Below, piece after piece: positions 2,002-64,000 of a stretch of 64,000 bases of DNA; the first letter of the stretch is position 1; each line of letters opens with the position of its first letter. Location of the stretch: the NCBI GenBank assembly GCA_003971905.1, contig RSEE01000002.1, forward strand, positions 930,001 to 994,000, in the 5' to 3' direction. Origin of the DNA: Moniliella sp. 'wahieum' (Eukaryota). The translations under genes were made by a program, and so were the position numbers. Under the pieces are notes generated by a model, which was not told the origin of the DNA, did no database searches, and saw nothing but the letters and a program-made list of their open reading frames with translations.

Positions 2002-2073
2002 CTAGAAAGAGGAGAGTTGCCGACAGGTCACCGGTCAGGGCCCTCTGGCTCCCACCTAAGGCCTAAGGCCTAA

Positions 2074-3074: not shown

Positions 3075-3150
3075 GTGGACCACTTGGGCGTAGATCATTT
3101 GGGCGTGGATCATTTGGGCGTGGATCACTTGGGCGTGGATCACTTGGGCG
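3075..3150. repeat. 15-bp tandem repeat (GTGGATCACTTGGGC) x5 overlapping the SEM1 stop codon
   Basis: Directly visible, with single-base variants between units. Confidence 0.95.
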
Positions 3151-4660: not shown

Positions 4661-4867
4661 CACGTTCATCCGTGTCCACACGCGCTACCTCGGGTGTGGG
4701 AACGGATGGCGGGCACCAGAGGGTCCTGATATCCTGGTGATTCCCCTGGTTCCCTAAAGGGGTGGCGCTACCGAGCAACACACGCAAGATGAACGGGTCG
4801 GTTTAGGCGTAGCTTTCCCCTGTCCCAGCCTTAAGCTCTGTCAATGACATGGATGCAGTATGGAGAT
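4661..4867 (+). mobile_element. Diverged 3'-end fragment of the RLE retrotransposon
   Basis: TFIRVHTRYLGCGNGWRAPEGPDILVIPLVP* followed by the 3' UTR core cctgtcccagccttaagctctgtcaatg. Confidence 0.88.
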
Positions 4868-6066
4868 GCCGACACTACACTTCCCTTCATCAACCATCGA
4901 GGAGCAGGGAGTAAGAGCATGAAAACGGGAAGATATCTCCGAGGCGATACCCGGTATCATATATCAGGCCTCAGGTCTGGGAAGCCCCCGCCCCCGAGCG
5001 GTACAATAGGAACTCCACAGAGAGAGGGTTTTGTTTCGGCTGTGCGTTGCACGATGGCTGTACCCCGCTGAAAAAAAGTGATCGGCCATCACGCAGTGAC
5101 GCACAGTTGCATGAATATAGTACCTAGTACCCGAGACACAGTTACTACTATCACATAGGTTACCGGTTAGTCGTGCTCTGCCCATTTTCTCTCGTAATAA
5201 CATAGGCACCTGTGGCAGTTGATGTCTCCTCTTCGATCTTATTTCCGGGCTGGGGCCCTTTGCTCCCTTTTCACTCTCAGTGACAAAAGCGACTAGTGAC
5301 AAACTAGCGACTCCTTTCGGCTGTGCAGCCCCCAGCCCACCATCCATTATGCATTGCGCTGGTAACCACGGCAATGTGGGGCATCTCCGCCGCTGTGCTA
5401 CCTACCACCAAGTGATGTAACGTGTAATGCATAATGCAGCAGCCGACGCCTATGGCCGGGCGTCCGGATGACAGGGTGATATGATGGCGGACAATGTAGC
5501 ACTTGTCCTGTGCGAGAGGCTCGTGTGCACAGGTGGCAACATAGGCGGCGAGACCCAGGCTAGGCGGAGTCGGTCACAGTAAGAAAGAAAACAGATGTGG
5601 CGGGAGAAGTAGGATATTGCACACCGTTGTAAGGGCCTGCCTGTCCGGCTCTTTGCATTTGACGACCGTGTTAGAGACGAGCCGGTCCAAGTATACGCGA
5701 CGCGCTTGGCTCATGCGACAGCACTTCTCGTCATCGTATGACAAACCATGCCTACTCCATCCCACACGCAATCCCCTGGCCACCGGCCAAAAGTCGGACA
5801 GAATATATATAGCTTGGCCCCCCTCCTAGGGAACAGACAATATAGTGCTGCGCGCTCGCTGTACCCAATCTTTGGGTCGGGCCGGCAGGGGCAATCAAGC
5901 TTTTTTTGCTAGCTGTTCTCCACAGTCTGTGGGGCTGATCGCGGGTCTAGACGGTCATTTCCTCCTCCTCACCATCACCTTGAAAACTAGCCGACCCGTC
6001 CTGGAGCTAGCACCCTCTACGAGCACCCCCTCCGCTCTCCCTGCCTCTTTGCATCACCCAGTTGAG

Positions 6067-7114: not shown

Positions 7115-8198
7115 TCAAGGCATGACGTACTTGTTGTTTGCGCTTTTCCGCCTGCGCAAGACGAGCTTCCAGTTCTTCCAGCTCCTGCGCTTGAGACTGC
7201 AGGTCGGGTCGCCCTAGGTAGCAATGCACAACATCAGTAATCAGCACCACCTGTCCAAAGTCGAGCGAATGGGGGGTAGGGCGGTAGGGCGGTAGAGGGG
7301 GGGGGGGGGGGGATGAGAAGCAAAAGGATAAGAGGTGACAACGTACTTGGTGTGAACCCGCTTCTCTAGCTCCGCAACCGAGCGATCCGCAGCTGCATGC
7401 AAGTCACCTTGAATGTCGAACCCAGAAGCTTGGACGGCGGGCAAGCCATTGGTGGGATGGGATGCGTGAGCGGCAAAGACCGGGTCGGAGGAGGTGGGTG
7501 CGTCGGCGCCATCAGCCGTGACGTAGGCTCGAAATTCGAGCGGCGTGCCATACGTCGCATCCGTTTCGTCCAAGCTCCATTCCTGCAGCTCGGTATTTTT
7601 CCACGGATAAGATGAGCCAGTCAAGCGGCGCAAAAAGTCGCCATGGGCAACGAGGAGGATGACCGGTTCGGGCCGGCTCTTAAGCCAGTTGCGCACCCAC
7701 GCCGCCCGTGCCTCCAGGGCAGCTGGCGACGATGCGTAGAACCCAGCCTTGCTCGTCCAGTCCGGCGTGAGCAGACTAAAGTCCACCCCGGCCAGTTCCA
7801 AGTCCTTCTCCAGCGTCGCACGGGGCGATCCCGTGTCGCACGGAAACGCATTGCACTCCTGCAACTGAGGCATGGCCGCAATCGTCGCGCGTCCGCCTAG
7901 CCGCGCCACCGTCTCCCCCCAGCCAATCAACGTGGTCTGCAACGTCCGCTTGAGCGCACTGGACGCCACGAGCTTCACCTGGGCCCGGGCCAGGGAAGCC
8001 TTAGGGTCCTTGGCAAGCGCGGCAGCTTGCGCCTTGCCGAGGGCGGTGAGAGGCGCATCGGGGATCGAGTAGTCGTCCGCCACGTTCTAGCCTAGGGCGT
8101 CAGCAGGGCGGTGCGTAGGAGGCACGCAGGGGAGGAGGGGAGGAAGCACTGACATGTTCCGCCTGGGCGTGGCGGCAGAGATAGATGGTCTTGGTCAT
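7115..8198 (-). CDS. Phosphoglycerate mutase-like histidine phosphatase with a short coiled-coil tail, at least three exons
   Basis: Exon 1 MTKTIYLCRHAQAEH (RHG-type motif), intron 8087-8153, then DAPLTALG, SSALKRTLQT, PCDTGS and LVAHGDFL. A second intron precedes QAQELEELEARLAQAEKRK. The 3' end is approximate. Confidence 0.9.
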
Positions 8199-8828
8199 GG
8201 GGGTGGAGGTTAGGATGCGAAGAGAAGGTGGTGGTGCGACAGGAGGAACGACGAGCTAGCGCCCGGTTTCTCGCCCGGTGGCTGCTGCAGTGCCTACCCA
8301 CTCGCGCCGCGCTGTGGGTTCTGGTGGTTTGGCGCTGTGGAGCGGGCGGAGAAGCCACGGGAGGAGCCGACGTCATCGAGTCATCCGCACGTCACGCGTC
8401 GTGTATCATGCTCCGCCCCCGACCTCACGCGTCATGCGTCATTCATTGTGCGCCGTGGCTGCGTGGACAGGGCCAGGGTGGCTCGAGGGCCGCTGGAGCG
8501 TGCTGGGGTGCTCTGCAGCAACCAGCCAACCCCCGTGGGCCACGTCATCACGGCAGGCGAGGGCAGCGGCGGGATGGCCAGCGTCCCCAACCTGACCAGC
8601 AGGACAAAACATCCATGATGCATGACGCGTCACGCATGACATGTGACACGTGATATTTCCTCCCGTCCCTCAGCGCACGGACCTCTTCCATTTTCAAACT
8701 TCGGCTGCAGCGGACATTTCAATTTCATTTCAACGGGATCATCGATCATCGAATCATAGCTGGCCCATCGATTCTGGGCACTCTGACCTGCTCTGGCTCT
8801 CAGATCTCACAGCCCTTTCTTCTTCAAG

Positions 8829-8873
8829 GTCCGGTTTGGACGTCCGGTTTGGACGTCCGGTTTGGACGTCCGG
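8829..8873. repeat. 13-bp tandem repeat (GTCCGGTTTGGAC) x3.5 with self-complementary unit ends
   Basis: Directly visible. Confidence 0.9.
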
Positions 8874-10169
8874 CTGTTCGTCCCAGCCATGCCGGGGAGG
8901 GCACTCAGTACTCATGCGCACGGTACTCATCGGTACACAGCACCCAGAACCAGTACGACTGAAAAAAAGAAAACACCAGAGAAACGCTAGAAATCGATTG
9001 CTCCCCTTGGGCTGGTCTATACTTTCGTAGACAGAGACTATCCAGGCTCCCTGCCTCTCGCTCTCCCTCCACTAGAGCTGCCGTCCAGAGCGTCGAGTCT
9101 CAAGAGCCTGCCTCGAACCGGGGGAAGCGAGAGGAAAGAAACGAAACACGGGGGGGTGACATGTGACATGGCGACACAGCCAAGACGTTGGCCCTGCACC
9201 GACGTCGCCAACGACCCTCAGGGGATTGGGTGCATTGCCGAGACCATCAATCATCAATCATCAATCATCATGGGCGGAGAGGCGAGGGTACGCAGGAGTG
9301 TACACCCCGTGGTCCTAAAGGGCGTCAAGAGAGAGGCAGAGGGAGTAACATCGATCGGTAGGGTGTATGGATAGGCCGTCGGGCGAACAGTGCAAGATAA
9401 GCAAGCTAGGTAGGAGCTAGTGTTCTTTCCGCCGATGGTACAGGCACGCTGGGCACGGGCCTTCCTGATCATTCATTGCTCAGCACAGAGGGGTGTGGGA
9501 TCGTACGAATCCTGAGGACCACAGCATAGCATAGAGGGGTGCGTTCTGCGGACCCAAGACGGAACCGTGTGCCCAGGAAGAGGAGAACCCCCTGGCCAGG
9601 CACATCCCAACGTAGAAATGGTTTTTTTTTTGTCGCGAACGATCTCTACCCCCTCGACCCAACGGCGAGACCCGCAGCTCTCACCCCACTCAAACCAGTA
9701 TCGGCCGCAGGGGGGGGGGTAGTAGCCCAGTAGCCCACCCATTTGGTGTGGGGTCTCTCCTGGTAATATCCATTCCGCCACGACGAAGAAAGCCACGACG
9801 GGCGCCAGGCCACGGAGCCCGAGTGGATCAGAGTCCCGCGCGTCTTGTAGGGAAGCCAAATGGCGGGGCGGGGGTGGAAATCGGGAACCTGGATCCAGAA
9901 ATCGGGAACCTGCTGCGCGTGCCCACGTATCCGGAGAGCATGGAGAAACAACCGAATCGGAACGACGCTACCACAAGGGGACAATGCAAACGGGGGGCAC
10001 GGAGGGTGACAGGTGACATGGGGGGGGAGAGCATTGCTTTGCAGAGGGGCCCAGGGCGCCTCCGCTCCCCATCCCTGTCACAAGCCTATGCGAGGGCAAT
10101 CTTTTCCGGTAGCCTGGAAAGCTTGGAATGCAGTCGATTCGTATGATTAAGACGATGGGGAAGCAAGCA

Positions 10170-10252
10170 GGACGCAAGACGCAAGATGCAGGACGCAAGA
10201 CGCAAGACGCAGGACGCAAGACACAAGACGCAGGACGCAAGACACAAGACGC
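10170..10252. repeat. 7-bp tandem repeat (GACGCAA/GACGCAG/GACACAA), about 12 units
   Basis: Directly visible. Confidence 0.95.
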
Positions 10253-10511
10253 ATGCTGCTGGAATGCGCAAGGTGCGTGAATATGGAACGTAAGTCCGAC
10301 CTTCCGAGGGTCCCGGTGCCGGCTGGAAGATGAAAAAAAACGAACGCTGAGCGCCCAGGATGAGCACGGATCCGTTCAAGATCATCTATCCTCGAGCAAG
10401 CTTCAAGGGAAACAAAAGTAAGGGCAGGGGGGGGGGGGGGGGCGCGACCTGCTGACCATACGAGACACGGGGTGAAGATAACAGAGCAAAACAAAACAAA
10501 AATCGACGATC

Positions 10512-10738
10512 CATCTGCATCCCTGGGGAAAAACAAGAATAAGCCAGCGGCTACCGTCTCCAAGGATCGGCAAAGGCCACGAGCGAGGGCCGAGGGGGCG
10601 GGAGCAAATCCGCTTCAGGTGGGGTGAAGAGCATCTGCATCCCTGGGGAAAAACAAGAATAAGCCAGCGGCTACCGTCTCCAAGGATCGGCAAAGGCCAC
10701 GAGCGAGGGCCGAGGGGCGGGAGCAAATCCGCTTCAGG
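10512..10738. repeat. 120-bp-period tandem duplication
   Basis: 10512-10619 and 10632-10738 are identical except for the length of one G-run. Confidence 0.95.
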
Positions 10739-12334: not shown

Positions 12335-14730
12335 GGGGCAGCGCAGCGCACTGAACCCGAACGCAACGCAGCGCAGGCTCGGCCCGTGCCGCCTGGAGCT
12401 GCCCCCCGATCATCGATCACATGCAGCCGCACCGCCAGTGCGCGCCCGTGCCAGCGCAGAGGCGCCGGCCGCCTGCTGCTGCTGCTGCTGCTGCGCTGGG
12501 CCGGCCAGCTCGGCCATTTGCCGCCACGGGTGCCCAAGCGCACGCGCCAGCCCAGCCAGCGCCGCCAGCGCTGAGCCGCAGTCTCAGTGCGCTGCATGCA
12601 CCAGCCACCAGCGCTTGCCACCCGCCCCTGCCGCCACGCCAGTGCCACGCCACGCTCGGCTGCTGTGTCTGCCGCCCAGCGTCTGGCGCAAGCTTAGCCT
12701 TAGCGCTTAGCGCTTAGGCCCGGCTAGCCCCGGCTGGCGTACCGCTTACCTATCCACACCGATGCTTGCCCCATGGCGCTGGCTGGCGCTGGCTTGGCCC
12801 CCTGCCCCAGATCACAGTCACGTGTGGCACCATGCATGCACATGCATCATCCATCCGCATCCTGCTCCCTCGCCTACTAGCGCCTACTGCCTCCACGTCA
12901 CACACACGTCACGCTGTCCCCATGCCCCGCCCATGCACTGCCCCTCGCCCTTGCCGTGCGCCAGCCCCCTCCATCTCCCCACCTGATCGCGATCGGCCTA
13001 CCACTTCACGCTTCAAGCACCAGTACTCGTACTCAATACTCGACTCGGTACTCAGTATCCTCATCCTCGGCCTCCTCCAGCCTCATCCATCCATCATAGA
13101 TCACGCCCAGGCAGCGACGAGGGAACCCGCAACGGATGCGCACGCAAGCGTATCTAGGACAGCAGCGTAGGGGATCCATGCGACCCGAGAGATAGGCGTT
13201 GGTGGTGGCAAGCAGGACTTCCGCGCGCTTCCGCGCTCATGTGGCTGGCTCCACCAGCCTTCGGAGTCCGCGGAGCCTGGGGGACGCCTGGGGACGAGTC
13301 AAGTGACTGAACTCTGGGTTAGTGACTGGGCTAGTGTCTACTAGTGACTAGTGAATTGGTGAACCGGTGAATATGTGCATGCAGTCATGTGACTGTGACT
13401 GGCTAGGCCAGCTAGTCAAGTGACGCACAACAATAGTAACACGCAAGCGCTCCACGGTGCACGACCAGCCAAGCTTGGAGCTTCAAGAGCTTCAAGCTTC
13501 ACGCTGAATTGAGCTCCAAGCCTCAAGTCACTAGTCAGTCACCGTCGCCACACCAATGCCGCCAACCAGCCACCACGCCAAGGGACTCCGTATCCTTCCG
13601 GAAGCATTTTTGAACGGCAGAAGCGTTCGTTCCCGTCCAGGCTGGCGGGGGAGGGGATCCCCCGCGTCTCAGCTGGCTCCAACAACCATTTCGAAACGTG
13701 TCAAGAGTTTGACTTCCTCCCGCGCTATCGGAGCTCAGTTTGACGGGCAGAAAGATGAGGAGAAGGCAATGGGTTGGAGCCAGAGGGAAAAGGTCGATCC
13801 CCTCTCCCTGGACGAGGTCGGGTAGCTGGGCCGCAGGAGGGCAAGGCGCTGACGGCCGGTGGCAGCAAGCTCGAGGTGAGGAAGATGTTTGCCGTGTGGA
13901 AGGGCTAGTGCCTCGTGGAGGGCTTGGCGGTCTGAGCCGGGACAGAACCGGTGCCTTCGCCGAGGTCTCATATCGACCAGCGAGTCTTCAGGCCGCCACG
14001 GTAGGTTTTGTCGCAGGGGGGAGCACCCAGCTCCTGGGAGGGTGGGTTGAATAACCGCCGTTGGTAGTGAGAAACGCGGTGGCCTGCCAGGGCGACGCAG
14101 CGGGCGGGTGGGAGGCAGCTAGCAGCGAGACGCCGCCCTTACGCGTGGGCTCATAACCTGCTGAACGAGGAGGAGAATGGATGATGTTCTGAGGAGAGGT
14201 ACAGGAGGCTATGGGAACTGAGACTGAGGCCTGAGGCTCAGGTCAGTACTCAGTCTGAGTGCTGAGGATAGGGTAGGGCCTCATATAGGCGAGGACATCG
14301 GGAAGCAGAGGGAGCGTCCGGGCGGATAAGAGGGGTGATGCCTCTCACGCAGGGTGCGTGATTAATGATTGGGCATCGCCCCTACAATGAGGCGCGACGG
14401 AATCCATTGGCGAGCGCGCGAGCGGTGGACCAACACGGCAGCTACTAGCGCTTGCCAGCGCCTTGGCCGATCAAGTCATGGCATCGTGACATGACATGGA
14501 AGTGGTGTCACCAGGAGGGTCACTTGCCCGAGGCCTTGGTTGCGATGGAGGTGCTCTGTAGTTTCACATTCTCACGAATGTTCAACTTGACGCTTGAAGC
14601 TTGAACGTTGGATATTGAAGCTTGAAGGTTGAAGATTGCATATTCACTGTTCATCGATCATTCTTCCATCGCGGCTGCGCCCGAACAGCAAGTCGTGGTC
14701 TTCTTCGGCACCCACACCACACCTTCAACC

Positions 14731-37560: not shown

Positions 37561-37582
37561 CTGCCCTTCCAGGGCCAGCTCC

Positions 37583-44177: not shown

Positions 44178-47100
44178 GGTTAAGCTTTGTTGTTGTTTGA
44201 ATGTTGGAGGATAGGGGAAAGGAATACGGGTGGAGAAGAGGGGTTGGGGTCGTAATAGAGAGGCGTAGCGATACCGGACGCCAAAAAAGAAACAGTAAAA
44301 AGAAGTACTCTACCGAAGGGGAGGCCCTGGAAGCAAAGTACAGGCAAAAAAGCTTCGTGTCAAAGCAGGCCGAAAAGCGGGTGAAATCAACCGAATACGT
44401 GCTTTGAGGGGGAGTTTAGAGTAGTAGCACGATTCTCTAGAGGAAACCAACAAAGGACACCTTGAGACGACCTTGACGAAATCCTTATATGAGGAAATGA
44501 AGGGTCAATCGTGGGCTGAGTAATAAAGGGGGATAACAGCAGAGGAAGCGAATATGTTCGCGAAGTGAGACATACGGAAGGTCAGAGAGCTGGAGAGAAA
44601 TGTGCTTAGTGGGTTATCAAGTGGCCAAAGTAACAACGAGTATCAAAACAGAGAAGCTCGTTTCCGTCTTCGAGTATTAAGCACTGAAATGGCTGGAGTT
44701 TTCAGGATGAATTCTTGGGGCGCGAGACGAGACGAAAGGAAGAGAATATAATGGAATCAGAGACAGGGACGGGAAGGGACGGGTGGAGGCTGTGGAAGTG
44801 TGGTGGAGGGAGTTGTTAGGACGGATGAGGGGAGTTGCGGCAGAGCGTAAATCGGCTGCCTAGAATGGAGAAGAAAGGGGTAAGAGGGGCGGAAGAGGAC
44901 GGGAGTGGAAGGTGGGCGGAGGAGATCGGTAGTGGGACTCGCGTTCAAAAGCGGGGGCAGAACGTTGTCACTGAGAGCGTCCTCGAGGGCGTCAGAAAGA
45001 GTTGACGGACGCTCGGCTAGAGGGGTAGGCAAGGGGAGGTGAAGCGAAGGAGTCGGAGCGGCGTGTCTGGGCTGAGGAGGTGTAGCCAACAGCAGCAGCG
45101 AAAAGATGTGCCTCAGAGACGTGTGCTAGAGGAGAGCAGCGATGGTCACAGCGGTGGCAAGAAAGAGGAAAGTGCTCTGCTCCAACAAGGGCGTTGTAGA
45201 GAGAGCATGCAAACGTGTGGAGCTCGGATGCATGGTGAGACCGGTGAATGACCGTGCGTCGGCATCGACGGCCTTCGGATCGCTATACGCCTCCCCAGGT
45301 GCTCCTTGCACGGGGGTTATGACTGCCAGGGAGCTACCACACTTGCCCTGCGCAGTTGATCTATTGATTAAGATTTGGCTCCGCAGTACCCGACAGCATC
45401 CCTGGTCACATGTCACATGTCACACAAGGCATTGCGTCTGTGTCAAAATACATTGGGGGCCGTACTGCATACTGGCCGAGTGCGTGTTGGGACTCAGATC
45501 TAAGACATGCGACAGACAACATGTGCGCTGTGGTGCCTTGAAGTTTGAAGCTTGGTGCATGATGCATGATGCATGATGCGAGATGCACCATCCCGCTCTG
45601 CCACTGAGGACTCAGACTGAGTATGGACAGTACTCCCCGCCCTCAGTTGGGGCTAAAATGTAGAATTAGAATGGGAATCACATGCATCACGTGTGATCGT
45701 GTGACAGTAGATGATATGTCCGCACCGGCATATGTCCTGTATGACGCACCCAGCTGTTGCAGGGGTTAACTAGTAACGAGCAACGCGCGCAACGCGTAAC
45801 GATTAACTCCTAAGATCCTAAGGCCGTAGACTTTAATCGGGGAAAAGTTGCAAGCTCCCACACCAGGCATCCGACTAACAGCGCTACGGCCGCCTGTGGC
45901 GAAGGTGGAAAGGTGGCGTGTGGCTGGGACAAGTGCTGGTGTGATCCGAATGTGATACATTCGCTCTGTCACGGGGTCACTCATCGGTTCCCACATGTCA
46001 CGTACATCACAGCCTGTATGACGCTTGCCACATGTCGGTCACGCGGCACCGTCACACCTGAGGCTCAGGCCACACACAGTAAGGCCTTAAGGCCTAAAGC
46101 CTAAGGCCACCCAGATCTCAGGATCACGGATCCGTTTTCCTTCCATCGTCAGCGGCTCAGCCACCATCCATATCAGAATGCAATCGCGCCATCAGTACTG
46201 CTGTCCTTTTCCACAAACGTATCCAAGTCGACCTCCTCGTTGTGGTGGGGGCACTTTGGATGGTATCCACATGCTCTGCATGCCAACCCACCCCCACCCC
46301 TCCTTCGTACCTCTGGTATCCACACCTACCACACTACACACTCTCTCAATGGATGACGCATGATGTGTGGCGCTCGATTCAAACTCGAGATCTCCACACA
46401 ACACATGTGTGGAAATGAGTGAAAAGGGCCATCCACATCATTTTACAAGGCTTTATAGGCAGAAACGCTTCGCCCTCCACTGGCTGACCTCGGGTCGGCC
46501 CCAGGAAGGCCTCATCGACTCATCGACCATGGACTCATCGACCATCGACTCATCGACCATCCCTCATTCGGCGCGTGTGCTTTGCAAGGAAGAAAGCATG
46601 TTACAAATGAAATTCACGAGACCTATATATACTTCACCGAGAGAACGACGTGCAACATGTATAACTGTACTTGCACTGCAGAGCTGCCAGTACGCTCTAA
46701 GATCTCAGACTGAGATCCGAGAGAGGGGCCTCTGAAGCTCTGAGATCTGAAGCTTGAAGTTCAAGCCTGTGAGGGATCTGAGTGCCTGAGCCTCAGGGGC
46801 GTCGCTCTAAGATCTGCCCGCAACTGGGGGTAGGTTGCCAGCCTTGTCCCTCTGCAGAGAATGGTAGACTACCGGTGATGTGTGTGCTTATCGAGCACAC
46901 TTGGCACACCACCTCCCAGATCGATCGTGGGGCATTCAGGACGGGGCAATCGTGTCACACCTGTCACATGTGACACATGTTGTGTTGCTCACAGCGGCTC
47001 AGCGATGAGGCCTGAGGCGCATCGATCATCATGCTCATCGATCGCGAAGGGGTTGCTGGTTGGACACGTTGGCGCTATTAAGCGCTGGGCGGCTGAAGTT

Positions 47101-47411
47101 TTTGAAGCTTGAAGCTTTTGAAGCTCGCCCCCAAATGGCATAATATTGTATCTCATCACCTGCATCACCACTTTCCGCCTTCTTCTCTGGGCTCCCGTCT
47201 CCCTCGCAGCTTCAAGCTTCCTTTTCAAGCTTCACTGCGGTCACCGTGACATGTGACATGTGACAGTAGGTCAAGTGACCGGTGACCACAGTCACTAGTC
47301 AAGCCGGCAATAACCTTAATAACCGGTAACCCCTATAGATATGGGCCCTGATATATGATAGACGTTGCACACCATTTGTCACATGTCACCGGCCGTACCG
47401 AATCTCTATGT

Positions 47412-47571: not shown

Positions 47572-47597
47572 CTCTATGTCATATGCAAAATTGATCC

Positions 47598-51594: not shown

Positions 51595-54046
51595 CGCAGC
51601 ACCAAGCTGGGGCGAAGCCCCAGCCGACCGGGCCGTAGGCCCGGTGGTCCTCCTCGTACCCGTTACGCGTTATACGCGTCATATATCATAGAAGCCCTGA
51701 CAGACCTTGACTATCGCGGGTTTACCGGTTACCGGTTACCCCTTTTGTTAGTGATCGAGAGCGTAAGCACGTAAGAGAGGAGGAACTTCAATTGTGTGGT
51801 GTATATAATTGTTGTGCGTGTTCACAGGCTGCTCGCCGGAAGAAATCGATGGGGGCAGTCAGTGGTTACGCCGCCGGTAACGCCGGTTACGTTTCCTCAT
51901 CCCCCCTGTCCAAGTTTTGATCCTATAAAGATTTGTCGAGAGAAGGAGTCCTCAGGCCCTGAGGCCTCAGTCCGCAGTTCTCAGTCCCAGTCCTCAGTCC
52001 TCAGTCCTCAGTCCGTCACATTGAGAAGCATCAAGATAGACCGCACCTCCTCGGGAGCGATAGAGACCAACAGGGATGCGTTCCTACATAAAGATGTGGG
52101 TCCGTGCCAAGAAAACGTCCATGCCTGTGTGGGACGAATGCATAATAAAAGCACAGAAAAGGATGAGAGAGCCATATGTGTTCCTTCTCCTTTTTGTGCA
52201 GAAGTGGATTTGAGAGAAGTTCAATGGCATGTGTAAGGGAATTTAATGTATTACCTCGTTGTTCTGGATGTGGAGGTGGCCCTTACAACCGCACAGACGA
52301 GAACGAGACGTGACAATACTCACGGATTGATGATTTGCAGTTGGAAGGGACCAGCGTCTACAGTTCCCATGAAGTTATGGCACGTTCAGATATTGTGTGA
52401 AGGACGAATGTGGTGTTATGTCATCATTGCAGGCAGTACTCAGGCCCCAAACGACTCAGGCATCAGAAAGTCACGACTCTATACGGCTGGTTCTTCCGGA
52501 GTGTTCCTTGTTAATTGTTCCTGTCAAAGCACTGATTGGTAAATAATGGAATCTCCAACAGTTCAGGACCATCTGACACCCTCCATTCGCTTTCAAACCG
52601 GAAGTAGCGCTTATGGATACGAATGAGCATATGATAGACACATGAGCTGTGAACTATCTTCAATGAGATTCGTCAGTCATTCCAGTGCCCGAACGTCTTG
52701 TTGGCCATGTTGGTGACATGGTATCCGCGCATCATCGACATCATATCACTACCAAATAGAAGATGGCAATTTAATGCTCATTGGTACTTGGAATTCTTTT
52801 GTCGCGCTCGGCTTGCTCCGACAGAGTCGAATCAGCTCCTTTTCCCGCGATGTTCCAAATGCATTGCGGTTCCCTCTCGTGTATATCACCGTATTCCGGT
52901 ATACGCAATCATTGCCAAATTTGGACTGGGTGCGCGTTCAAGCCAAAAGGGTGTGTTCAAGTGATGCCGTTAACCTCATTTACACTTGCTACTATACGAA
53001 AGGAGCGGTACAGGGTACGGAGTTGGAGATCAATCTGAACCTGCTTATCGGCGAGCTCGAGGTACTTGCTGGCCTCGAGGAAAGTCAAGTGTATTAGTTG
53101 AACGCATTGCTGCGCTCGACCACATATTGCTTCCATGGGCTGCCTTAAGCTTCTTTCAATTGGATAGCTCCTGCCGAGTCTTCTCCCACTTCTTTTGAGA
53201 GCTTGCGTTGCGTCGTATGAATGTGTTCGTCGTGTGTATGTCCATGCATGGGGGGGATATAACGAGAGTGGTATAATAAGATGTATAGTCGTTTTTTTTT
53301 TCCTTGGCCGCAGCACGCACGTATGCGTGAAACACAACGTACCAGTAGGGTGAGGGAACCACTTCCTCCCCTTCAAATAGGAAGGTTCATTATATGAGCA
53401 TATCAAAGGGATCGCCCCTCTCTAACATCTGCGGGTTCTTGTCCCCTCCGATACGTCCAAACTATAACATCCGTCAATGCCAAACAGTGCGCAAAAATTA
53501 AACGCACTTCACAGCATACACTTGCAATTCGCGCAGCCGCCATATACATTAGTCGTGAAAGGTGCTCATCATCGGAGTGCGCCCCAGTGGTTTTTTGGGA
53601 TTGTGGGCTTATAGGTATTAATATGCCTGAAGGGAAGACCCGATGACAGATGCCGCGATGACGCCGTGACAGACGGGCGATTCTTAGTATGTCACCCAAT
53701 GGCCAAGCTCGCTCCAAGGACGAAGGCCTTCGGAGCTACGGCCTGGACTGAGCGGAGATCCTTCGAGGCGTGAGAGGCAGCGTCCGGCACGGCAATTTCC
53801 CCTTGGCCGCGACTGCCTGTGGGTGTATCGGTACAACGCTGATAGGCATATCGCACATGCACATGAACCGAGGCCGACTCTTCTGAAGTCGGTCAACCGG
53901 GCTTGGTCCATCATTATGACCGCTTAGGAGTTATGCACCCAAACGTCCTTCAGACAGGTTGTGATTTTATCGCTACCTGGACCCTTTCTAATCGTCTGTG
54001 CTGTCGGACGTGCCACCTGAGCCCTAATGCATGATTGCCTTCATAT

Positions 54047-54287
54047 TGTCACGGGCGAAGACTGACTGGCATGCCCAGGGGAGTGCTTACGAGCTCCCAT
54101 CGTCTTCCTATAACTCCGACCCCAGGTTGTCATCGGGTCAGTTCCGATTTGAACCAATTTCAGACCTCAGCGCCTCAGCTGAGGTTAGTCTGCTCTATCC
54201 AACAATAGAGCGCGCTTCCAGGTTCAACGATGTTCAACTCAGTCAGACTATGGCCAGCGTGCCCGCCAGCGACGTATCCGCGTGACA
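54047..54287 (+). repeat. Candidate 241-bp LTR (TGTCACG...CGTGACA)
   Basis: 7-bp terminal inverted repeat with TG...CA ends, just upstream of a gypsy pol remnant. No TSD and no second matching copy seen. Confidence 0.45.
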
Positions 54288-54589
54288 ATAGTCGCCTTTC
54301 GCCCAAGTGAATTGGTATCCACCGGGTGTACCCAATTTTTTCATTAACTTCCTGTGCGACGATAGTCGCCCCCGTGCCCATTTACCTTTCTAGGTTGCCC
54401 GCGCACGCAACCACCCCTCCTGTTTTCCCTGGATCCCCGTTGTTCCTCTACTGCGTGCGTTGTTTCCTGATTACCCCTGTCCGTAAGCAAAATGAGATTC
54501 GATTCGTGAGTTTCCCTACAGTTCATTGGCGTCTTCCCATATGCTGTCCTCGCCAATTGGATCAACCCAGTACAGGCAACCTCCTCTCT

Positions 54590-56082
54590 TAGTTTCTCCA
54601 CCCTTCGACCAGAACAAGCCTTTTCAGATCGAGTCGGATACAAGCGGCTATGCCGTGGAAGCGGTTTTATTTCAACCTCACGGGGGCGGACAGAGCCCCA
54701 TAGCCCATTGGTCCACTGGGATGCCCACACCCATCGAGCAGCGTTGGGGAGTGGGCGATCAGGAATGTTTCCCCTCATCACGGCGCTCAAGGTTTTCCGG
54801 AATTTGGTGGAATCGGCCCGGGACCTGGAGTTAGTGACCCACCACAAGAATCTTGTGAGCTACAACGACGAGGGTCAGCGCAACCGCCGGCAAGCAAGCT
54901 GTGGTGCGTTTTCTTTCGGTCAACCATTGATGATTTAGCGTCCCGGCTCGAAGAACGGTACTGCGAACGGCCTATCCTGTCGGCCGGATCTGGTGGAACA
55001 AGAAAATGATGGAAGACGCGGCCGACGCGCGGCGTAATGGTGGCGCAAGCAACCTATCCTTCGAGCCTAGTCGGAAGAACATGATGATGAGATATGTGCG
55101 TCCCTCTCGCTGCCCCCCTCGCAGTAGTTGATCCTCACCGATGTCGATGGTCATGCTGGAGAAGTAGAAGCAGCCGAAGAGCCACTACATCAGGACCATT
55201 CGTCCGAAGGCGAAGTGATTGAGGCAATCCAAGAGCTCAGAGAGCACGACGGAGGACACGAGGCCATTGTGAAGCGAGTCGAGAGGAAGACTATGCGCTG
55301 CAGGTCTATGAGGGGCGCGACGGGCCTCTCTACTTCCAGGAGAGGCATATGTGCCCGAATCCGAAGCTCTACGGTACACCTTACTCACGACCACCACGAA
55401 GAAGAGTTCGAGACTGGGCACCAGGGAAGAAAGCGCACGTATGACCCACTGGCGCATTGGTATTGACCGGGAATAGCCTCTGATGTTCCTCGTTACGTAG
55501 AACGTGCTCACTATGCCAAACCGCCAAGAGCTGCCGCCAGCATAATCCCTCAGGTCTACTCTACCCATTGGAGATTCCAGCTCGTCCTTGGTCCAGTTTT
55601 AGTATGGATCACTTCAGGCCCCTGCTGGAGGGAGGACACGGGAGTTTGGGTGAGGTGCTCAATATGGTACCGGTGGTGGTTGATCGGCTGTCCAAGTTGG
55701 TGGTGCCAATCCTCGCAGTTCGAGCCACTCAGCTGGCGGCTTGCTCGAGCGCTTGTCGGTCCATTGTGTCACGGGCGGTGCCCGCCAATCCTCTCCGACT
55801 TTTCCCGAGTATGCTGACGATAGGGTGGTTCACCACGAGGTCCGGGAGGTCCTTGACTCCCGCTGTAAGGGTTGAGGAGGACGTCTTGAGTACTTGAGTG
55901 CCTTTTCCATTTCAAGGGCTACGCTGTCCACGAGCGGGAGTGAGTGCCACTGGTTGCGGATATGTCCCATGAGGCCGATCCGGTTGTCCTTGAAGACGAT
56001 CCTGATTCCGGCGCACGTCGTATTACCTTTACTCGCTTTCCCCAATCCGGGGAAGTGAGGTCTGAAAGGGGGCAATGTCACC
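54590..56082 (+). mobile_element. Decayed Ty3/gypsy (probable chromovirus) pol remnant: RNase H, integrase, chromodomain trace, PPT
   Basis: PFQIESDTSGYAVEAVLFQ, DQE, VTHHKNL, RPGSKN, GHQGRKRTY, PLEIPARPWSSFSMD and VVVDRLSKL. Purine tract GAAAGGGGG at 56064-56072 is followed by TGTCAC. Many stops and frameshifts. Confidence 0.85.
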
Positions 56083-59000
56083 AATTGACGAAGCTCGCTC
56101 CAATTTCCTGCACCTCGCTCTCCCCTTTCCCTTGTGCTGCTGTTCCCTGCACAATGCCTCTTGTTTCTGGAACGTCACACAGAGGGACACGATCTTCCAG
56201 TCACCTAGCTTGGGCTAAAACTCGATCAGCGAGTATTATATTGATTAAGTATCAAGTCGAGCGAAAGAGAGAGGGAAGGAGAGATGTGGTGGCGAAAGGA
56301 AAAGGGAAATGCGCGCAGATGATTTGGCTAGCTGTCTTATCTCCAGCCACGTTGCAACAGCACCCCCACCCCCCCACCCCACCCCTGAAGCTAGCCTAGG
56401 TCTGAGCTGGTGGACCAAAGTCGTCTGGCAAAGGGCGCAGCCAATGTCCGTGGGCAGTCTCGTGCGCCACTTTGCCCCAGCATCAAGCAGGCAGTATTAG
56501 ATCGATATACCAACAGTGGGCCTTCCGATCTGCAGCGGGCGGTCCAGCGAGCCGAGAGCGTACCGACCGATTCCCCTCCATGGTGGACGAGGAGGAGTTG
56601 AACCTTCCTCCCACGAACAATGCACTGTGCTGGTGACTTTTCAGGGGGCAGAGAGCTACAGAAGCCGATGCATCGTCCGTTGCCTTCGGTTCGGTATTGG
56701 GATGTCAGACTATAAACATATGTACCCGAGCACATTTAACCATTTTTAGTGGGGGCGACGAAGCAGACAGCTGCACGGATGGATAGGTAGATCATATAAG
56801 GTGTGGAAAATGGGGAACTTGAATATATAGTTGGGCTGGTGCGTCCAGGGGGAGATGGGGCTGCTGTGGGTTAACAGATATAGGACCTACTTTTGTATGG
56901 AAGTGAGGTGTGAGACCGGCATGAGCCCTGAGGCTCAGGCTGAAGCCTGAGGCTGAGGCCTGAGACCTGAGACACATCCCTGTGCTAATCCTGAAACTGG
57001 GATGATCGATGGAGTTCAAATCGGGACACAGAGTAGGACATGGAAGCGGGAGAATTACTAGTAGAACAATGAGGCCTGAGGGTGGGGGAGAGTAGGGGAG
57101 AGGCAGTGTATACTGGAGTGCTTCCTGTGGCGAGGCACGGGAATAAAAAGGAGGCCGAAACAATTGGAAAGTTCGGGAACCAGGAAACGAATGCATGGAG
57201 TAAGAATAGCATGTGACAAGTGAGAAGGAATTAGTGAGGTTACTAGGATGAGGCCTGAGGCCTGAGGCCTGAGGACGGAGGGGCCTGAGCCCCTGAGGCC
57301 TGAGGGGCCTGAAGATAGAAAATGGGTCGAAGAACCGCGACAGGAATATGTACTGCACACTGGAAAATGCCGCACAAAAGGAAAGAGAGAGAGAAAAACA
57401 GGCTTATCGTGATGCGTAAAACAGCACCCTCTTTCTCACTCCCGCGGACTACGGCTGTTTTGCTCCGGTATACTAGACGTGAGCGCGTGAGAGACCGGCG
57501 TGACCGGCGTGATCGGCGTGATGACGCGCGTGACGCTTCGTTCTCCCAACATGGAGATTGGGAACAATTGCCGTTCAGTTCGTTCTGAGGGCATCGTGCA
57601 TATTTATATGCATCAGTTTCCTTCGGCCTGTTCTATGCCGAGTCTCGTGTAGTCTATCTCTTCTTCTTACATATATATGCACACAGGCCTCAGGGGCCTC
57701 AGGCCTCAGCCTCAGGGCCACTCTGGCATTTGATGTCATTAATCGAATTAATTATTTGTTGTAGTATCCCGCTCTGAGCGCCCATCTGCTGCTACTACCC
57801 TTTACATACCTATGTATCGCCTACCCACGCTAAGTGATCGTCAAGCGGATTGTGCCGCACTGCCCCATGCGATCTTTAAGCTCGCCTTTACTAGTTATAC
57901 TCTCCTCTTCGCGCGGAGCAGATCCATTAAAATCAGACAACGGCAAAGAGTTGTACATATTTATAGGGGACGAATGAGGCAAAAAATATCGCTGTTACAT
58001 GTTATACATAATCAGTATAAAGGAGTCTTGGCGTGGAGTATCCCTTTTTTGGCAACAATGGTGAGTAATTCAGATTGGAAAGATCTTGAGGAGGGACATG
58101 CTCGCACACTCTCAAAATACCACTCGTAAACACTGCACACTGAAGGCGGTTCGTTACGAAGTTCAACGACGAAGGCGAAACAGAGTTTCCAAAACATATC
58201 GCCGTACGACCAGACGATCAAAGAGCTCATAGGCACATACTAACAATCGAACAATCGAAATACGAGCACAAGAGTACAAGATCGTCGCACAGTAGAGGTA
58301 GGGTGATTTTTGCTCATCTATAATCCCCCTTGTGTAAAGTCGCCAGCCACAGTCAGTCGATCAAGAAGAAAATGCATGCTCCCTGCTCTCAAGAAGTGTC
58401 TTTGAACTTTTAAGAGTTACAAGAAAAGAATGGAAAGACCTTGGGGTTCAGCGTCACGTTCCAAGCAAATGAAATGGACCGAGAGATTCACATAGTTATC
58501 GCCTCGCACAGACAAGCTCCACCAAGGAAAAGCAAGTGAGCCCTTCTCTGTTGGATGTCCGACCTGTTATGACGACAGGAATCAGAGTGGTGGCATAGGA
58601 AGACGCGGCCAGCCAGTTTTGAGCCAGAGCCAGATTGCTAAATCGTTTCATGTTCCCTATAGGCGAAGAGGGCGGAGGGATACGGTGGTGGTAAAATCTT
58701 GTCTGGGTCTCTCTTGACAATGATCGGGTAGACAGTATCGGATTTGATTATCTAGTATACTCAGTCAAAGTGTGTATCAAATTGAGGACAAGGCCAGAGC
58801 CAATGAAACAGATCATTGAATGGTTTTGTCCATGGAAAGAGCAGAATGGTGACAGATCGCAGCGCAATAGAAGACCTTACATACAACAGATGCAATTCTG
58901 AGATGTGCGTCCAATACCTATCATGTATCATTGCCCGCGGAATATAGGAATATGCTGTAACACCCCAAATGACTGTGGTGGGGGTACAGGGCGTAGGTAA

Positions 59001-60298: not shown

Positions 60299-61149
60299 CC
60301 TCACAATGGTCGCAAGAGGAATAGAAGGAGGCGATGGTGGGAAGGTAGGTGGGGAGACGGAGGGCGAATGGAGAAGAGAGGGGGTGGGGGAGTAATGAGT
60401 AATCAAATCCAGATTCGCTACCGCAGTACCGAGCCACAAATGAGGCTTGCGTGGCAGCGGCCTTTGCAGCGAGCAGGCAAGAACAGGGCGCGGTTGAGGC
60501 TGGATGACAGCCACGATAGGGGGTGCGTGCTGGGTAGCTAATAGCCAGCCCTGAGGGCTGAGGAACCGACGGGTATGCTGACGAACTGATGATGGTGGTG
60601 GGAAGGAGGGAACTTTGGTCGCGCACGTTCGGAATCGTTCCGATCGATGAGCGCCCGCGTGGGTAGGATGGATACGTAAATAGGTGTAAATATATATGTA
60701 CACACTGCAGGCATCATCGGCATCAAAAAAAGATGCCACAGCTGCTGCGGATGTGCAAAGCGTGAAGCCAGAGGCGTGCAGCTTACACAGAGAACCGCAC
60801 AGGGGGCATGTGTGGCGTCTTGTGTGCATTGTGCGCCTTAGACTGATCAGTGCAACCAATCACACTACCCACAGGAACTGAGACTCAGTACCCGGTATGC
60901 CCAATATACTCAGACGCAGTCCGAGCTGCAAAGGCTGGCGACAGGCCTCCACCCGTGTTGTTGCCATCGACCATCGCGCATCGCGGGAGGCAACGATCGA
61001 GACTGGGCAGGCGGGAGCAGCGCGGAAGCTCGTAATGCATAACGCCTAAGGGCTATATTATGCGTTGTGGATCGATATGCATCCAAAGACTTTCACCACC
61101 CTGAATAATAGGCATGCAATTGTCGCAGGTCCTATGCCACTAGGAGAAT

Positions 61150-63510
61150 AAGATGAACGTGAACGCGCGCTGCTGAGCCGAGCTGGCACTACTGCTCAGG
61201 CTGAGCGCTGAGCCTCAGCGTTCGCGCCTAAACGTTCAGGTTCTGTTGAACTCAACGTTGAACGTTGAACGTTGTGAACGAATAGTACAGCTCATTTGGC
61301 TCATTTGAGCGCTCAGGCTGAGCACTGAGTGTCGTCGGTATTGAGCCTATTGAGCACTGAGGCTGAGCGCGTGAACGGTGGGAGGGGCTATAAGAGCTGT
61401 GTTGGAATTGCCTTGTCGCAGGTCAAGCTTCAAGGACGATTCAGTTCGGTGCCGACGGCGACATGAATGGTGGCCGGTGGGCACGGCAGCCAGACATCAA
61501 CGCACATCAACGCATCAACGTACCATCTACGTTCAGTTCAACCGTTTAATGTTCAATGTTCATCGTCCGACGTCGATATGCATCAAGGCCACTCAGTCTC
61601 AGTACTCAATATTCAATGGGCCTAAGAACTGAGCCTCGGCCTCATGCATCGTACATCATGCATCATGCATCACATGTCACATGCAACATGCATCGCACAG
61701 CGCTGCGCGCGCAGCGGCTGAGCCGCTCAGGCTCCGTGCGCGCTTAACTGGTAACCGGTAAGCGCTAAGCGGCTCAGCGCTGAAGAAGTCAACAGTTTAC
61801 GCGTTACGTGTTACGAGGCCTGAGGCCCTGACGGCCTGACGCCTGTGGGACGGACCTTAGGCCTTAGGCTTAAGCCTGACGCCTGACGCGTGATGCATGT
61901 GACATTGACATGCAGCATGTGATGCATGTGACCCGGCGACCCGGCGACCGGATCGCTTGAGCTTGAAGTCAAGCTTGAAGCTTGAAGCTAAGCTTGAAGT
62001 TCAAGCTGTTCAAGCTTCAAGCTTCAAGCTCGAAGTGATCGCAGATCTGTCAAGCTTAATTAGATCAATTTCGATCGACCGTGGTATGTATTTGCAGTGC
62101 CTAGTGGGGGGCGCCTGAGGCCTGAGAAGCATTCCACCGTTCAACGTTCAACGTTCAACGTTCATCGATCGTTCATCGATCATCGTACGTTCATCCACCC
62201 ATCTTCTGGTGTCCTCATGCATCATGTCCTCCTGCATCATGCATGCCATGCCATCATGGGGCAGAGGGGCTAGCCTGGAGGCTAGTGGCATGCTGCAAGT
62301 CTCACTGACCGGTGACCGGTGACGTATGACCAACTGATCGATGATGCAATGATGCATGATCGATGATCGATGATCGATGACGCGTGACGCATGGCGCATG
62401 GCGCTCGATGACGTGTGACGTATGACGCGTGACGGGTCATATAGTTATACGAATGTGTCATCATGTGCCACGTGCCACGCGCCACGTGATTATTGGGCCT
62501 GGACCCACGTGATGTGTGACATGTGACGTGTGACGTGTGATGCTTGTGATGCTTGTGGGGAAAGCCAGAGGAGATCGACGAGAGCAACGTGCATGGGACA
62601 CTCCCGTGGAACCTGTGCACCAGGCAATCAATCAATACCTGGCAATTCCCAGTCAAGAGACTCAGCCCAGAGCCCATTCTGGCTGAGCCGGGTGCAACGG
62701 TCAGTTCGCTGGCGCTCAGCTCATACGCTGATGCCGTTGGCGGACTACAGCCTATTACAGCTGCTATAGCATGTGCTACATGCAGCAGGACAGCCCCCAG
62801 CAAGCCCAGATCCATAGCCCGACAGCCTGATGAACATAGGACAGAGAAACTGCACCCCTTTTTCCTGCTAGAGCGCATATGAGCTCTCGGGTTTGTACCG
62901 GGTACCGATTATCGATTCCTAGCTTTACCGGTTTCACCGGTTACCAATGATTAATGAAAGCGGAAACAAGCTAGGTTCTTCTGTCTCTGTTAGTTGAATC
63001 GATAACGTTGTTTGATACAACCTTTCCAGCTTCTGATAATCGATAATCGAGATAATCGACGGTCAGCGAGTTCAGACTTCAATATAAGCTTCAAGCTTCA
63101 GGCCAGGGGCCTGAGGTACTATATACTCAGTAATAGTAGTCATTAAGTCATTAGTCACTACTAGCTTCACGGACGTGTATTGAGCAACTGATTACTATTG
63201 CTGATAGTGCTGATGAGTTCTGGGGGTTTCCTGGGGTACTGAGATCTGAAAGATCTGAGAATCAAGCTTCAAGGCCGGCCCATTCCCTCATCGATCTCAG
63301 ATCTCATGGAGTATCAGTATATCAGGGTCCCAGGGGCATGCGGATTTGCAGCGGACTGTTGAACACATTGACGTTGAGCGCTGAGCACGTACGTTGAGCC
63401 CCCGATTTGGCCCTTTTACTTTTGTTGTGGGCTACAGAACCATGCCACTGTATCGGTATCAAGCTATCAAGCTTCAAGCCTTCAAGCTTCAAGCTTCAAG
63501 CTTCAAGACA
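61150..63510. repeat. Dense field of mixed TNA-(palindrome)-TNA heptamer repeats
   Basis: Runs of AAGCTT, AACGTT, ATGCAT, ATCGAT, ACATGT, AGGCCT, AGCGCT, ACCGGT, ACGCGT and AGATCT at 7-bp period. Confidence 0.9.
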
Positions 63511-63813
63511 CGGCATGTGTGCTACGAGAGTGCCGCAGCCACAGCACAGCCTCTGCCGTCAGCGCGTCAGCGCATCAGTGCGTCTGGCCCCCAGACCCTC
63601 AGACCCAACCCTAACGTCTAAACCTCAGGCCCTCCTCACCTTTGACTTCTCGCCCAAGACTCTCCAGACCCTTCCCCCCTGGTCGGCCGCTAAAGCTTCT
63701 GGCTGGGCTCCCAAAGATCGCCTTATCCCCTAGTAGACTGATAGTCGATCTTTTGCCGATAGGCACCACAACAATATAACTAAGATCGTTAAGATCATCG
63801 ACCATCCTCCCAT

Positions 63814-63860
63814 ATCTCTATTTTGGGACCGTGTCATTGACAGAGCCTAAGGCTGGGACA
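63814..63860 (-). mobile_element. About 47-bp extreme 3'-end fragment of the RLE retrotransposon
   Basis: Reverse complement is tgtcccagccttaggctctgtcaatg + 13 nt + atagagat, the same layout as the other 3' ends. Confidence 0.75.
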
Positions 63861-64000
63861 TAGAAACAGTATTTAAAAGCAGTTCAAAACTACGGCTGTT
63901 CAGTTCAAAAGAAACACTCAGACGTTCAGGTGTATCAATGCGTTAATATATGCCACTCAGCATTCGATTAGCAGAGGTAAACACCTTGCATTTTTATCGT

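Follow-up and report, generated by a model that had tools for sequence, protein, structure and literature searches.

Throughout this 64-kb window (the whole stretch of DNA analyzed here, eukaryotic and with a G+C content of 58%), the heptamer grammar can be traced to a single founder 12-mer, TNAcd·d′c′·TNAcd. In this founder, a 5-nt sequence is directly repeated, with the reverse complement of its final two bases between the copies; longer arrays take the form (TNAcd d′c′)k TNAcd. This copying rule, its exact 3+2+2 geometry, and its confinement both to TNA and to intergenic DNA on the 5′ side of genes are properties of the sequence itself. We put at about even the chance that scars of one and the same site-specific mutational event, TNAcd → TNAcd d′c′ TNAcd, have accumulated to form the grammar. 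The pattern resembles the trace that a site-specific and hitherto undescribed form of DNA insertion would leave, not that of ordinary slippage, and it relates to known kinds of change, namely templated indels, transposon-type scars, and microsatellites.

All counts come from the one 64-kb window, in which the rule covers about 80 loci, spread over about 20 kb on the promoter side of genes, and involves roughly one-eighth of TNA sites. If it holds genome-wide, one precise mutational operation would explain a major component of intergenic DNA. It would then be a rare reduction of a complex-looking grammar to one molecular event, would provide a new indel signature to seek in other genomes, and would point to a promoter-aimed nuclease or transposase activity. 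Each event would also set new short palindromes beside genes and could thereby supply regulatory variation from within the genome.

The TNA scaffold and the founder 12-mer

Across the window, 141 of 286 TNA-N4-TNA sites (49%) carry a palindromic core. By comparison, the 15 other XNY scaffolds give 4.2–8.6%, and the baseline over all 4-mers is 6.2%. The original prediction had proposed just such an excess and had quoted four strings, beginning at 8616, 62350, 61745, and 61656, all of which are present at those positions. It had counted at least 13 of the 16 possible palindromic cores in this frame; the full set of 16 occurs. Core composition is near random, with 34% of the 141 palindromic cores GC-only, 58% mixed, and 8% AT-only. 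Two further expectations, an excess over a Markov background and TNA autocorrelation at lags of 7, 14, and 21, were borne out within the window. In its intergenic islands (20.8 kb), 122 of 205 cores are palindromic, whereas Markov models of orders 1, 2, and 3, trained on the same island DNA that was scored, gave means of 3.0, 3.6, and 5.6 palindromic cores and at most 16 in 100 runs. Even at order 5, the mean was 33 and the maximum 45. TNA autocorrelation over the whole window reaches 2.73-fold at lag 7, 1.61-fold at lag 14, and 1.36-fold at lag 21.

The middle base of TNA behaves differently from what had been claimed. It was said to flip freely, but the two flanking TNAs share the same N at 121 of the 141 palindromic-core sites, carry complementary N at only 11, and otherwise differ at 9. 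The related claim that the arrays read alike on both strands stands for the scaffold and the cores and fails for N. The spectrum of N roughly follows the background of TNA sites, and the middle base is mostly G or C.

The palindromes also have a preferred outer pair. The window has 357 A-N4-T palindromes of 6 bases where 169 would be expected, and those with the three other outer pairs run at 0.86–0.96 of expectation. Pairs of palindromes show a spike at lag 7, where 39 of 63 pairs join A..T with A..T. Among exact tandem duplications, 73 arrays have period 7, and the unit is quasi-palindromic in 44 of them, 40 being of the A..T type. Quasi-palindromic units were found in 0 of 66 arrays of period 6, 1 of 21 of period 8, and 0 of 12 of period 9, and the palindrome excess is absent from the window's tandem duplications at periods 4, 5, 6, 8, and 9. 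Heptamer arrays with a non-palindromic unit, such as (GCAAGAC)12, are present too.

Founder 12-mers number 133 (69 on the plus strand and 64 on the minus) at 81 loci, against 0.3 in local shuffles. Of all 16 XNY centers, TNA alone is enriched: the runner-up, CNT, gives 7 and 6, centers ANT, CNG, and GNC give only 2–4 equivalent 12-mers, and GNA, like CNG, lies at background. Flanks of other lengths yield 6 instances against 4.8 expected (length 1), 1 against 0 (length 3), and 0 against 0 (length 4). The spacer is equally constrained in its origin. It is complementary to cd at 69 and 64 of the 89 and 91 TNAcd-NN-TNAcd sites, complementarity to the other end being found at 7 and 8 of about 90, a background level. 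Tandem 5-bp repeats lacking a spacer (the RR class) are likewise at background, with 3 and 5.

The ends of the repeat are as well defined as its center. Measured around each hit, the stretch that keeps period 7 is most often 5 long (35 of 121 hits), and lesser maxima stand at 12 and 19. A true 7-bp duplication would need a run of at least 7, and the founder is therefore not one. Left and right overhangs of the arrays (n = 103) are (0,2) in 21 cases, (2,0) in 17, (0,0) in 8, and (2,2) in 5. Exactly one-sided arrays, (0,2) and (2,0) together, are thus in excess at 38 of 103. Array ends fixed in this way rule out slippage in random phase. A staggered cut of 7 bp in fixed phase was also rejected, since exact duplications do not share the same boundaries and the founder repeats only 5 nt.

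Arrays, chains, and a proposed generative rule

The following arrays carry the argument on how founders combine; a dot stands where no strand is assigned.

8614..8653, strand dot: flagged array, holding a left-facing and a right-facing founder, about 0.5 kb upstream of the histidine-phosphatase ORF at 7244-8086 (minus strand)
8614-8625: left-facing founder 12-mer of the flagged array, CATGA·TG·CATGA
Between its two founders: middle of the flagged array, TGA-CGCG-TCA, with N flipped
8637-8648: right-facing founder 12-mer of the flagged array, TGACA·TG·TGACA, then CG-TGA
4955..4975, strand dot: clearest '< >' triple, TA TCA TATA TCA GGCC TCA GG, with N = C throughout
46739..46759, strand dot: '< >' triple, TC TGA GATC TGA AGCT TGA AG, two palindromic cores, unrelated to each other, in phase and sharing N
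61750..61770, strand dot: '< >' triple, GG TAA CCGG TAA GCGC TAA GC, with N = A (the string quoted from 61745)
61654..61692, strand dot: (TCA TGCA)x2, then TCA CATG TCA CATG (the string quoted from 61656)
62335..62440, strand dot: cores TGCA, TCGA three times, and CGCG (the string quoted from 62350, with its continuation)
57249..57274, plus strand: (TGAGGCC)x3 + TGAGG, of the form (R s)k R, left extension 0 and right extension 2
63480..63507, strand dot: (TCAAGCT)x3, whose reverse complement was the pattern for a prokaryote control scan

In the chains, left- and right-facing 12-mers share one central TNA, giving ab TNA b′a′ ab TNA cd d′c′ TNA cd; the triples at 4955, 46739, and 61750 and the flagged array (8614-8648) are examples. 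The outer heptamers of a chain are perfect N-centered palindromes, and the middle one is a chimera, ab-TNA-cd, which we infer to be the original site. At 4955, for instance, the outer heptamers TATCATA and CCTCAGG are perfect palindromes about N, and the chimeric TA-TCA-GG between them would be the ancestral sequence. When different palindromic cores stand in phase, all three TNAs have the same N in 8 of 9 pairs. Adjacent in-phase cores that differ at all four positions form 5 palindrome-palindrome pairs and no mixed ones, and cores two units apart form 4 palindrome-palindrome and 5 mixed pairs. Non-palindromic cores that adjoin palindromic ones mostly differ by single changes of CG to TG or CA. 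Beyond its CGCG core, the array at 62335..62440 continues in decayed CGCA/CGTG/CGTA units and shows a 3-nt phase break.

Our proposed rule would produce these features in the following way. At a TNA, the trinucleotide and the two bases on one side of it (cd) would be copied and d′c′ set between the copies, for a net gain of 7 bp. The products would automatically include the 4-bp palindrome cd d′c′, a 6-bp palindrome of the A..T type, a 7-bp palindrome centered on N, and a TNA repeat with the same N. Every event would create new TNA sites having the same flank, and renewed hits on these would lengthen the array with the same core; an event on the opposite side of the outermost TNA would introduce a different palindromic core, in phase. 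A rule that can act on either side of any TNA would thus give a constant scaffold, inherited N, variable but self-complementary cores, and a common phase. Of the four site-sides present once an event has occurred, three should regenerate the same core and one should make a new core; the observed ratio of same to different cores among palindromic neighbors is 20 to 9. The direction of change would be insertion, not loss. The arrays would later be blurred by point mutation, frequently of CG to TG or CA, together with a degree of slippage and an inversion now and then.

In silico, about 140 rule events on 18 kb of random DNA, with 0–5% point mutation, gave 124–142 palindromic cores, about 98% of them with the same N, and overhang classes dominated by (0,2) and (2,0). 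Array sizes were about 100/10/2 in the simulation and 89/10/4 in the window. The simulation overproduces clean one-sided arrays: about 65 of 115 fall in the (0,2) and (2,0) classes, compared with 38 of 103 in the window, so decay, slippage, and inversion must contribute as well. A generative process, which the original prediction had offered as one possibility, is supported by the array ends, the spacer, the specificity for TNA, and the simulation, and it can now be stated exactly as TNAcd → TNAcd d′c′ TNAcd.

It is useful to contrast this rule with ordinary microsatellite behavior. Quasi-palindromic heptamers that fold into hairpins could slip, and mismatch correction within the hairpin could keep the units palindromic. 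Period-7 arrays are indeed over-represented (73, against 66 of period 6 and 21 of period 8), non-palindromic heptamer arrays occur among them, inverted or GC-rich arrays fold well (z −6.0 and −5.0), and (TGAAGCT)n is a recurrent bacterial microsatellite. We nonetheless consider this account very unlikely, since the palindrome excess is missing at periods 4, 5, 6, 8, and 9 and only a TNA center with two flank bases works, though CNG or GNC stems would fold better. Moreover, founders and short arrays fold no better than shuffles (z 0.34, −1.0, 0.97, and −1.6), good folding being confined to inverted or GGCC-rich arrays. When in-phase neighbors differ at all four positions and one is palindromic, so is the other (5 of 5 pairs); the founder repeats 5 nt instead of the full 7 nt; and bacterial heptamer arrays are not enriched for palindromes. 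Hairpin-stabilized slippage was rejected on the period, center and flank, and folding results, and minihairpin stability alone was rejected because GNA and CNG centers are at background. Slippage as the origin of the grammar is largely refuted, and the original prediction was right to hold slippage of a single unit insufficient.

Genomic setting and candidate mechanism

The rough gene map consists of Pfam matches on 219 ORFs of at least 110 aa and rests on ORFs, not transcripts. Each entry below comes from a Pfam match on an ORF; the WC-1 ORF carries LOV/PAS domains.

3171-3734, minus strand: SEM1
7244-8086, minus strand: histidine phosphatase
14619-15443, plus strand: MIX23
About 18.7-19.5 kb, minus strand: RhoGEF
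21.2-23.9 kb, minus strand: Utp14
26.7-27.7 kb, minus strand: RRM protein
27.9-29.0 kb, plus strand: PWI/CCCH protein
30220-30729, minus strand: eIF5A
About 32.2 kb, plus strand: PRPP synthetase
34.6-36.7 kb, minus strand: GT15 mannosyltransferase
38.4-39.6 kb, plus strand: Ysc84
41177-44173, minus strand: WC-1 (white collar 1), 999 codons
48525-51407, minus strand: reverse-transcriptase ORF
About 54.5 kb: degenerate RT/RNase H fragment
59519-60859, minus strand: velvet-domain ORFs

The closest named relatives of the WC-1 ORF are white-collar-1 proteins of Ustilaginomycotina (47–55% identity), including those of Violaceomyces, Sympodiomycopsis, Acaromyces, and Ustilago; other assembly proteins reach 70–71%. 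The host accordingly belongs to Ustilaginomycotina, the subphylum of the smut fungi. The WC-1 ORF had no match in prokaryote genome contigs, the reverse-transcriptase ORF had none in viral contigs, and Rfam gave no match in the window. Alignment of WC-1 led to two metagenome contigs, short and largely coding, one of which has a single palindromic hit and the other none. A comparison of repeated-element copies, made in search of a pre-insertion allele, showed no 7-bp indels.

Founder 12-mers are a feature of promoter-side intergenic DNA, as judged by this map of ORFs and Pfam matches. Only 1 of the 133 falls within the 24,963 bp spanned by Pfam-supported ORFs, and the other 132 lie in the remaining 39,037 bp. 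Three regions show the range of densities.

44200..47400, strand dot: array-rich island upstream of the WC-1 ORF, 19 founder 12-mers on 187 TNA sites
60900..64000, strand dot: densest island, upstream of the velvet-domain ORFs, 51 founder 12-mers on 254 TNA sites
52000..56900, strand dot: negative region, a degenerate non-coding retroelement relic, 0 founder 12-mers on 248 TNA sites

Region 1-5800 holds 16 on 272 TNA sites and region 12.4-14.65 kb holds 11 on 102, while the G-rich stretch at 9.4-12.4 kb has 0 on 61. None occurs in four convergent (3′-3′) spacers, which contain 137 TNA sites.

This placement bears on the possibility that the arrays are selected cis-regulatory elements, in which TNA-spaced palindromes would be kept for protein binding or promoter chromatin and the mutational rule would serve only to give birth to sites. 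The 12-mers are limited to the 5′ side of genes, are densest upstream of the regulators WC-1 and velvet, and are missing from convergent spacers and from a transposon relic that is rich in TNA; in addition, the units TGACATG, TGAAGCT, and TGAGGCC recur in separate upstream regions. The sequences themselves speak for a different origin: all 16 cores occur in near-random composition, each core copies the local flanking dinucleotide, N is unconstrained, and the 12-mers have sharp, asymmetric ends with no obvious binding logic. With cores and N both free, there is no fixed recognition sequence beyond T.A. Selection thus seems an unlikely source of the grammar, and the suggestion of a protein that reads TNA half-sites is not supported by cores that are near-random in their dinucleotides and derived from the local flank. 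Sites of the bZIP/AP-1 type have an ANT center, not TNA, and were rejected on that ground. We regard the arrays as probably by-products, not selected sites, which may since have been recruited in promoters. Their restriction to promoters could reflect access to open chromatin or, equally well, later selection.

An artefact of assembly or sequencing is exceedingly improbable, given that the pattern avoids ORFs, 3′ spacers, and the transposon relic and that CpG-type mutational decay is visible in the arrays. Two other candidates were set aside: a dispersed repeat family, because the islands share no long sequence, and the supply of stop codons in all frames (every TNA being TGA or TAA on one strand), which leaves cores and ends unexplained.

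The arithmetic is exactly 3+2+2, and T and A are indispensable, whereas C/G or A/T at those positions will not do; both facts suggest that a protein sets the geometry of the event. We think the agent is most likely a nuclease or transposase, similar to PIF/Harbinger, that makes a 3-nt staggered break at TNA. In our working model, such a break would form at TNA, and the recessed 3′ end of one flank would be filled through the overhang. The filled end would then snap back on the T·A pair, copying two of its own bases and extruding a 7-nt mini-hairpin (d′c′TNAcd). Next, the end would re-copy two flank bases, the TNA overhangs would reseal the break, and the 7-nt loop would become an insertion at the next replication. 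This model would cover the requirement for TNA, the retention of N, the local origin of the cores, and the one-sidedness, but not why exactly two bases are copied. Among the 219 ORFs, no candidate transposase or nuclease was found, the only mobile-element domains being reverse transcriptase and RNase H, and the window contains no convincing MITE-like TIR pair with TNA flanks.

More broadly, we suggest tentatively, and at somewhat less than even likelihood, that this lineage has a hitherto undescribed enzyme activity that repeatedly writes 7-bp palindromized copies beside T-N-A in open promoter DNA. If so, the activity would amount to a "sequence generator," either programmed or parasitic, unlike the known classes of transposon footprint, slippage, and template switch. 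Such a generator would have built a large share of the promoter sequence of the lineage and may feed regulatory evolution. In the literature covered by our full-text searches, palindromic heptamers anchored on TNA are not described, either for fungi or for any other group. The original prediction had mentioned heptamer repeats in Ustilago intergenic DNA; none of the matches listed for Ustilago and heptamer concerned DNA heptamer repeats.

A more conventional possibility is that the 12-mers are footprints of classical cut-and-paste excision, consisting either of a 3-bp TNA duplication and two TIR bases from each end or of a 5-bp duplication and P-nucleotides, as for Transib/RAG- or hAT-like elements. 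The 5 + 2 arithmetic fits Transib/RAG, where the duplication is 5 bp and hairpin opening is usually offset by 2. GGCC, with which we take the mPing terminal repeat to begin, shares the top rank among the cores (18 of 141). TNA is also the PIF/Harbinger target (PMC4561436), and a direct repeat with inverted filler is the typical appearance of a footprint, as far as the accounts in PMC5499845 and PMC4561436 extend. Footprints of this kind are quite unlikely to be the explanation, since each core consists of the local flank dinucleotide and its complement, shows no fixed element terminus, and takes all 16 forms, which led us to reject 3-bp duplications with TIR remnants. The version with a 5-bp duplication, P-nucleotides, and end joining was rejected because the classes it predicts, without P-nucleotides (RR, 3 and 5) or with P-nucleotides from the other flank (7 and 8), are at background. 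The event is strictly one-sided and exact, too uniform for the variable outcomes of end joining, and no DNA-transposon ORF or TNA-flanked MITE-like TIR pair was seen in the window. Known mPing footprints also differ, to the extent that PMC4561436 documents them. The simple versions of a TNA-transposon footprint, one of the explanations in the original prediction, do not survive these comparisons. The one-sided copying rule remains the reading that we prefer.

Comparison with known systems

PIF/Harbinger elements (Tourist, mPing/Pong) prefer gene-proximal DNA. They resemble the process proposed here in that T-N-A is duplicated with a free middle base; in the window, the same N is kept in 121 of 141 sites, and TNA is the sole enriched center among 16. 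For mPing, a member of this group, any middle base is accepted in the TNA duplication, and cleavage at TNA is proposed to leave a 3-nt 5′ overhang that can be precisely resealed (PMC4561436). The proposed staggered overhang is thus a second likeness, and the superfamily is reported from fungi. The products differ. In the excision events that PMC4561436 describes, imprecise excision of mPing retains both target duplications as TNATNA, with no 4-bp palindromic filler. Here, by contrast, the form is TNA + cd d′c′ + TNA, and TNATNA occurs only 62 times against 34 in shuffles (1.8-fold). Neither the copying of flank bases nor tandem arrays is described in the PMC4561436 account of mPing, and no transposase or element was seen in this window.

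When hAT, Transib/RAG, and MULE elements excise, hairpin intermediates characteristically leave palindromic filler derived from the flank (PMC5499845, PMC4561436). These systems are alike in that the filler is the reverse complement of the adjoining flank and stands beside a short direct duplication. They are unlike in that their duplications are 8, 5, or 8–9 bp, without a TNA rule, and in that their footprints are variable and may draw on either flank, whereas the class without filler is missing here. In the founder 12-mer, the copy comprises exactly 2 bases, which invariably come from the end of the flank that lies away from TNA.

Template-switch (quasi-palindrome) mutations, reportedly the subject of Ripley's model and of work by Loytynoja and Goldman in 2017, also turn local sequence into short, perfect inverted repeats in a single step. 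Unlike the event proposed here, they have no fixed trinucleotide or stem length, and they usually replace sequence instead of adding 7 bp with a 5-nt direct repeat.

The heptanucleotide microsatellites of bacteria, which Rehm et al. are said to have described in 2015, share with the present arrays a period of 7, an intergenic location, and rapid change. A scan of prokaryote genomes for (TGAAGCT)3 returned more than 121 stretches, mainly in Pseudomonas and its relatives, and the 776 kb of DNA around these matches served as a control. This control contains 25 TNA 12-mers in 776 kb, compared with 133 in 64 kb here; 7 of the 16 centers outscore TNA; and only 19 of 169 other period-7 arrays are quasi-palindromic, with no palindrome bias. 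Slippage microsatellites would have an arbitrary array phase, a founder of one full unit, and a unit sequence constrained only by its capacity to misalign or fold, whereas the arrays in the window have fixed ends, a 5-nt founder repeat, and a palindromic unit built on TNA. Transcription-factor arrays would share a fixed core from site to site and would lie at promoters; the arrays described here have no such common core, and their location is that of promoters.

Variant and inverted heptamer arrays

The TNA arrays, in which putative 7-bp scars follow the rule TNAcd -> TNAcd d'c' TNAcd, also occur in modified forms. Two period-8 variants use TNA-array motifs, and like-unit arrays form inverted pairs that lie 23–870 bp apart and are 95–100% complementary.

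37351–37392, period-8 variant GCTCAGC+C: a TNA palindrome centered on N, the middle base, plus one extra base
46511–46561, variant TCATCGA+C: 7- and 8-bp units in alternation
61254–61274 and 62142–62162, inverted array pair
56946–56967 and 57695–57716, inverted array pair
61969–61989 and 62013–62033, inverted array pair

The switch of N between G and C is located at such inverted pairs. The most closely spaced pair (61969–61989 and 62013–62033) forms a strong fold when single-stranded, with a z of −6.0 relative to shuffled sequences.

Scar-rich upstream regions and retroelements

The longest and most scar-rich upstream regions in the window are those of the light receptor gene white collar 1 (WC-1; 41177–44173, minus strand) and the velvet-domain gene (59519–60859, minus strand), which are separated by 15 kb. 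Two retroelements were also annotated.

47399–52000, also 1460–2014 and 4661–4867, retroelement
52000–56900, degenerate retroelement relic

The first carries an open RT ORF of 961 codons (48525–51407, minus strand). Element copies of ∼0.5 kb, with 85–95% mutual similarity, are repeated elsewhere in the window, and one copy contains an internal duplication at 448-bp spacing (47399–47572 and 47847–48018). GGTGGCGAA-type arrays (9, 25, and 34 bp) in like orientation flank the RT ORF on both sides, at 47686–47792 and 51473–51596; these arrays may belong to the termini of the element. In the relic, an RT–RNase H fragment (54496–54831) is the sole scoring part, and none of its 248 TNA sites bears a 7-bp scar. 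Either the relic lies in protected chromatin or it is younger than the scar-making process.

Repeats outside the TNA rule

Five further tandem repeats in the window do not obey the TNA rule.

8829–8873, 13-mer GTCCGGTTTGGAC, 3.5 copies, the unit junction making an 8-bp palindrome
3075–3151, 15-mer, five copies
10167–10253, (GCAAGAC)12, super-period 21 bp
37486–37567, (CCTCCTTC)10
51947–52014, (AGTCCTC)10

Separately, close to gene ends there are runs of 16–19 G, as well as low-complexity tracts rich in G (7297–7312, 10427–10442, 30021–30039, and about 60090–60120). An 86-bp exact direct duplication, its copies 120 bp apart (10512–10597 and 10632–10717), sits in a G-rich region devoid of Pfam hits.

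Heptamer arrays in prokaryotes

In the control scan, (TGAAGCT)n arrays of 3–11 copies were found in more than 121 prokaryote genome stretches (loci L004–L123), far above chance expectation for a 21-mer. Their hosts are mostly Pseudomonas, Stutzerimonas, and Xanthomonas, and variants such as AGCTTCT often adjoin them. At a further locus, L003 (1–5918), the contig is assigned to a Hyphomicrobiales MAG; it has 36% G+C, consists almost entirely of short satellite-like repeats, and appears to be contaminating eukaryotic DNA in that bin.
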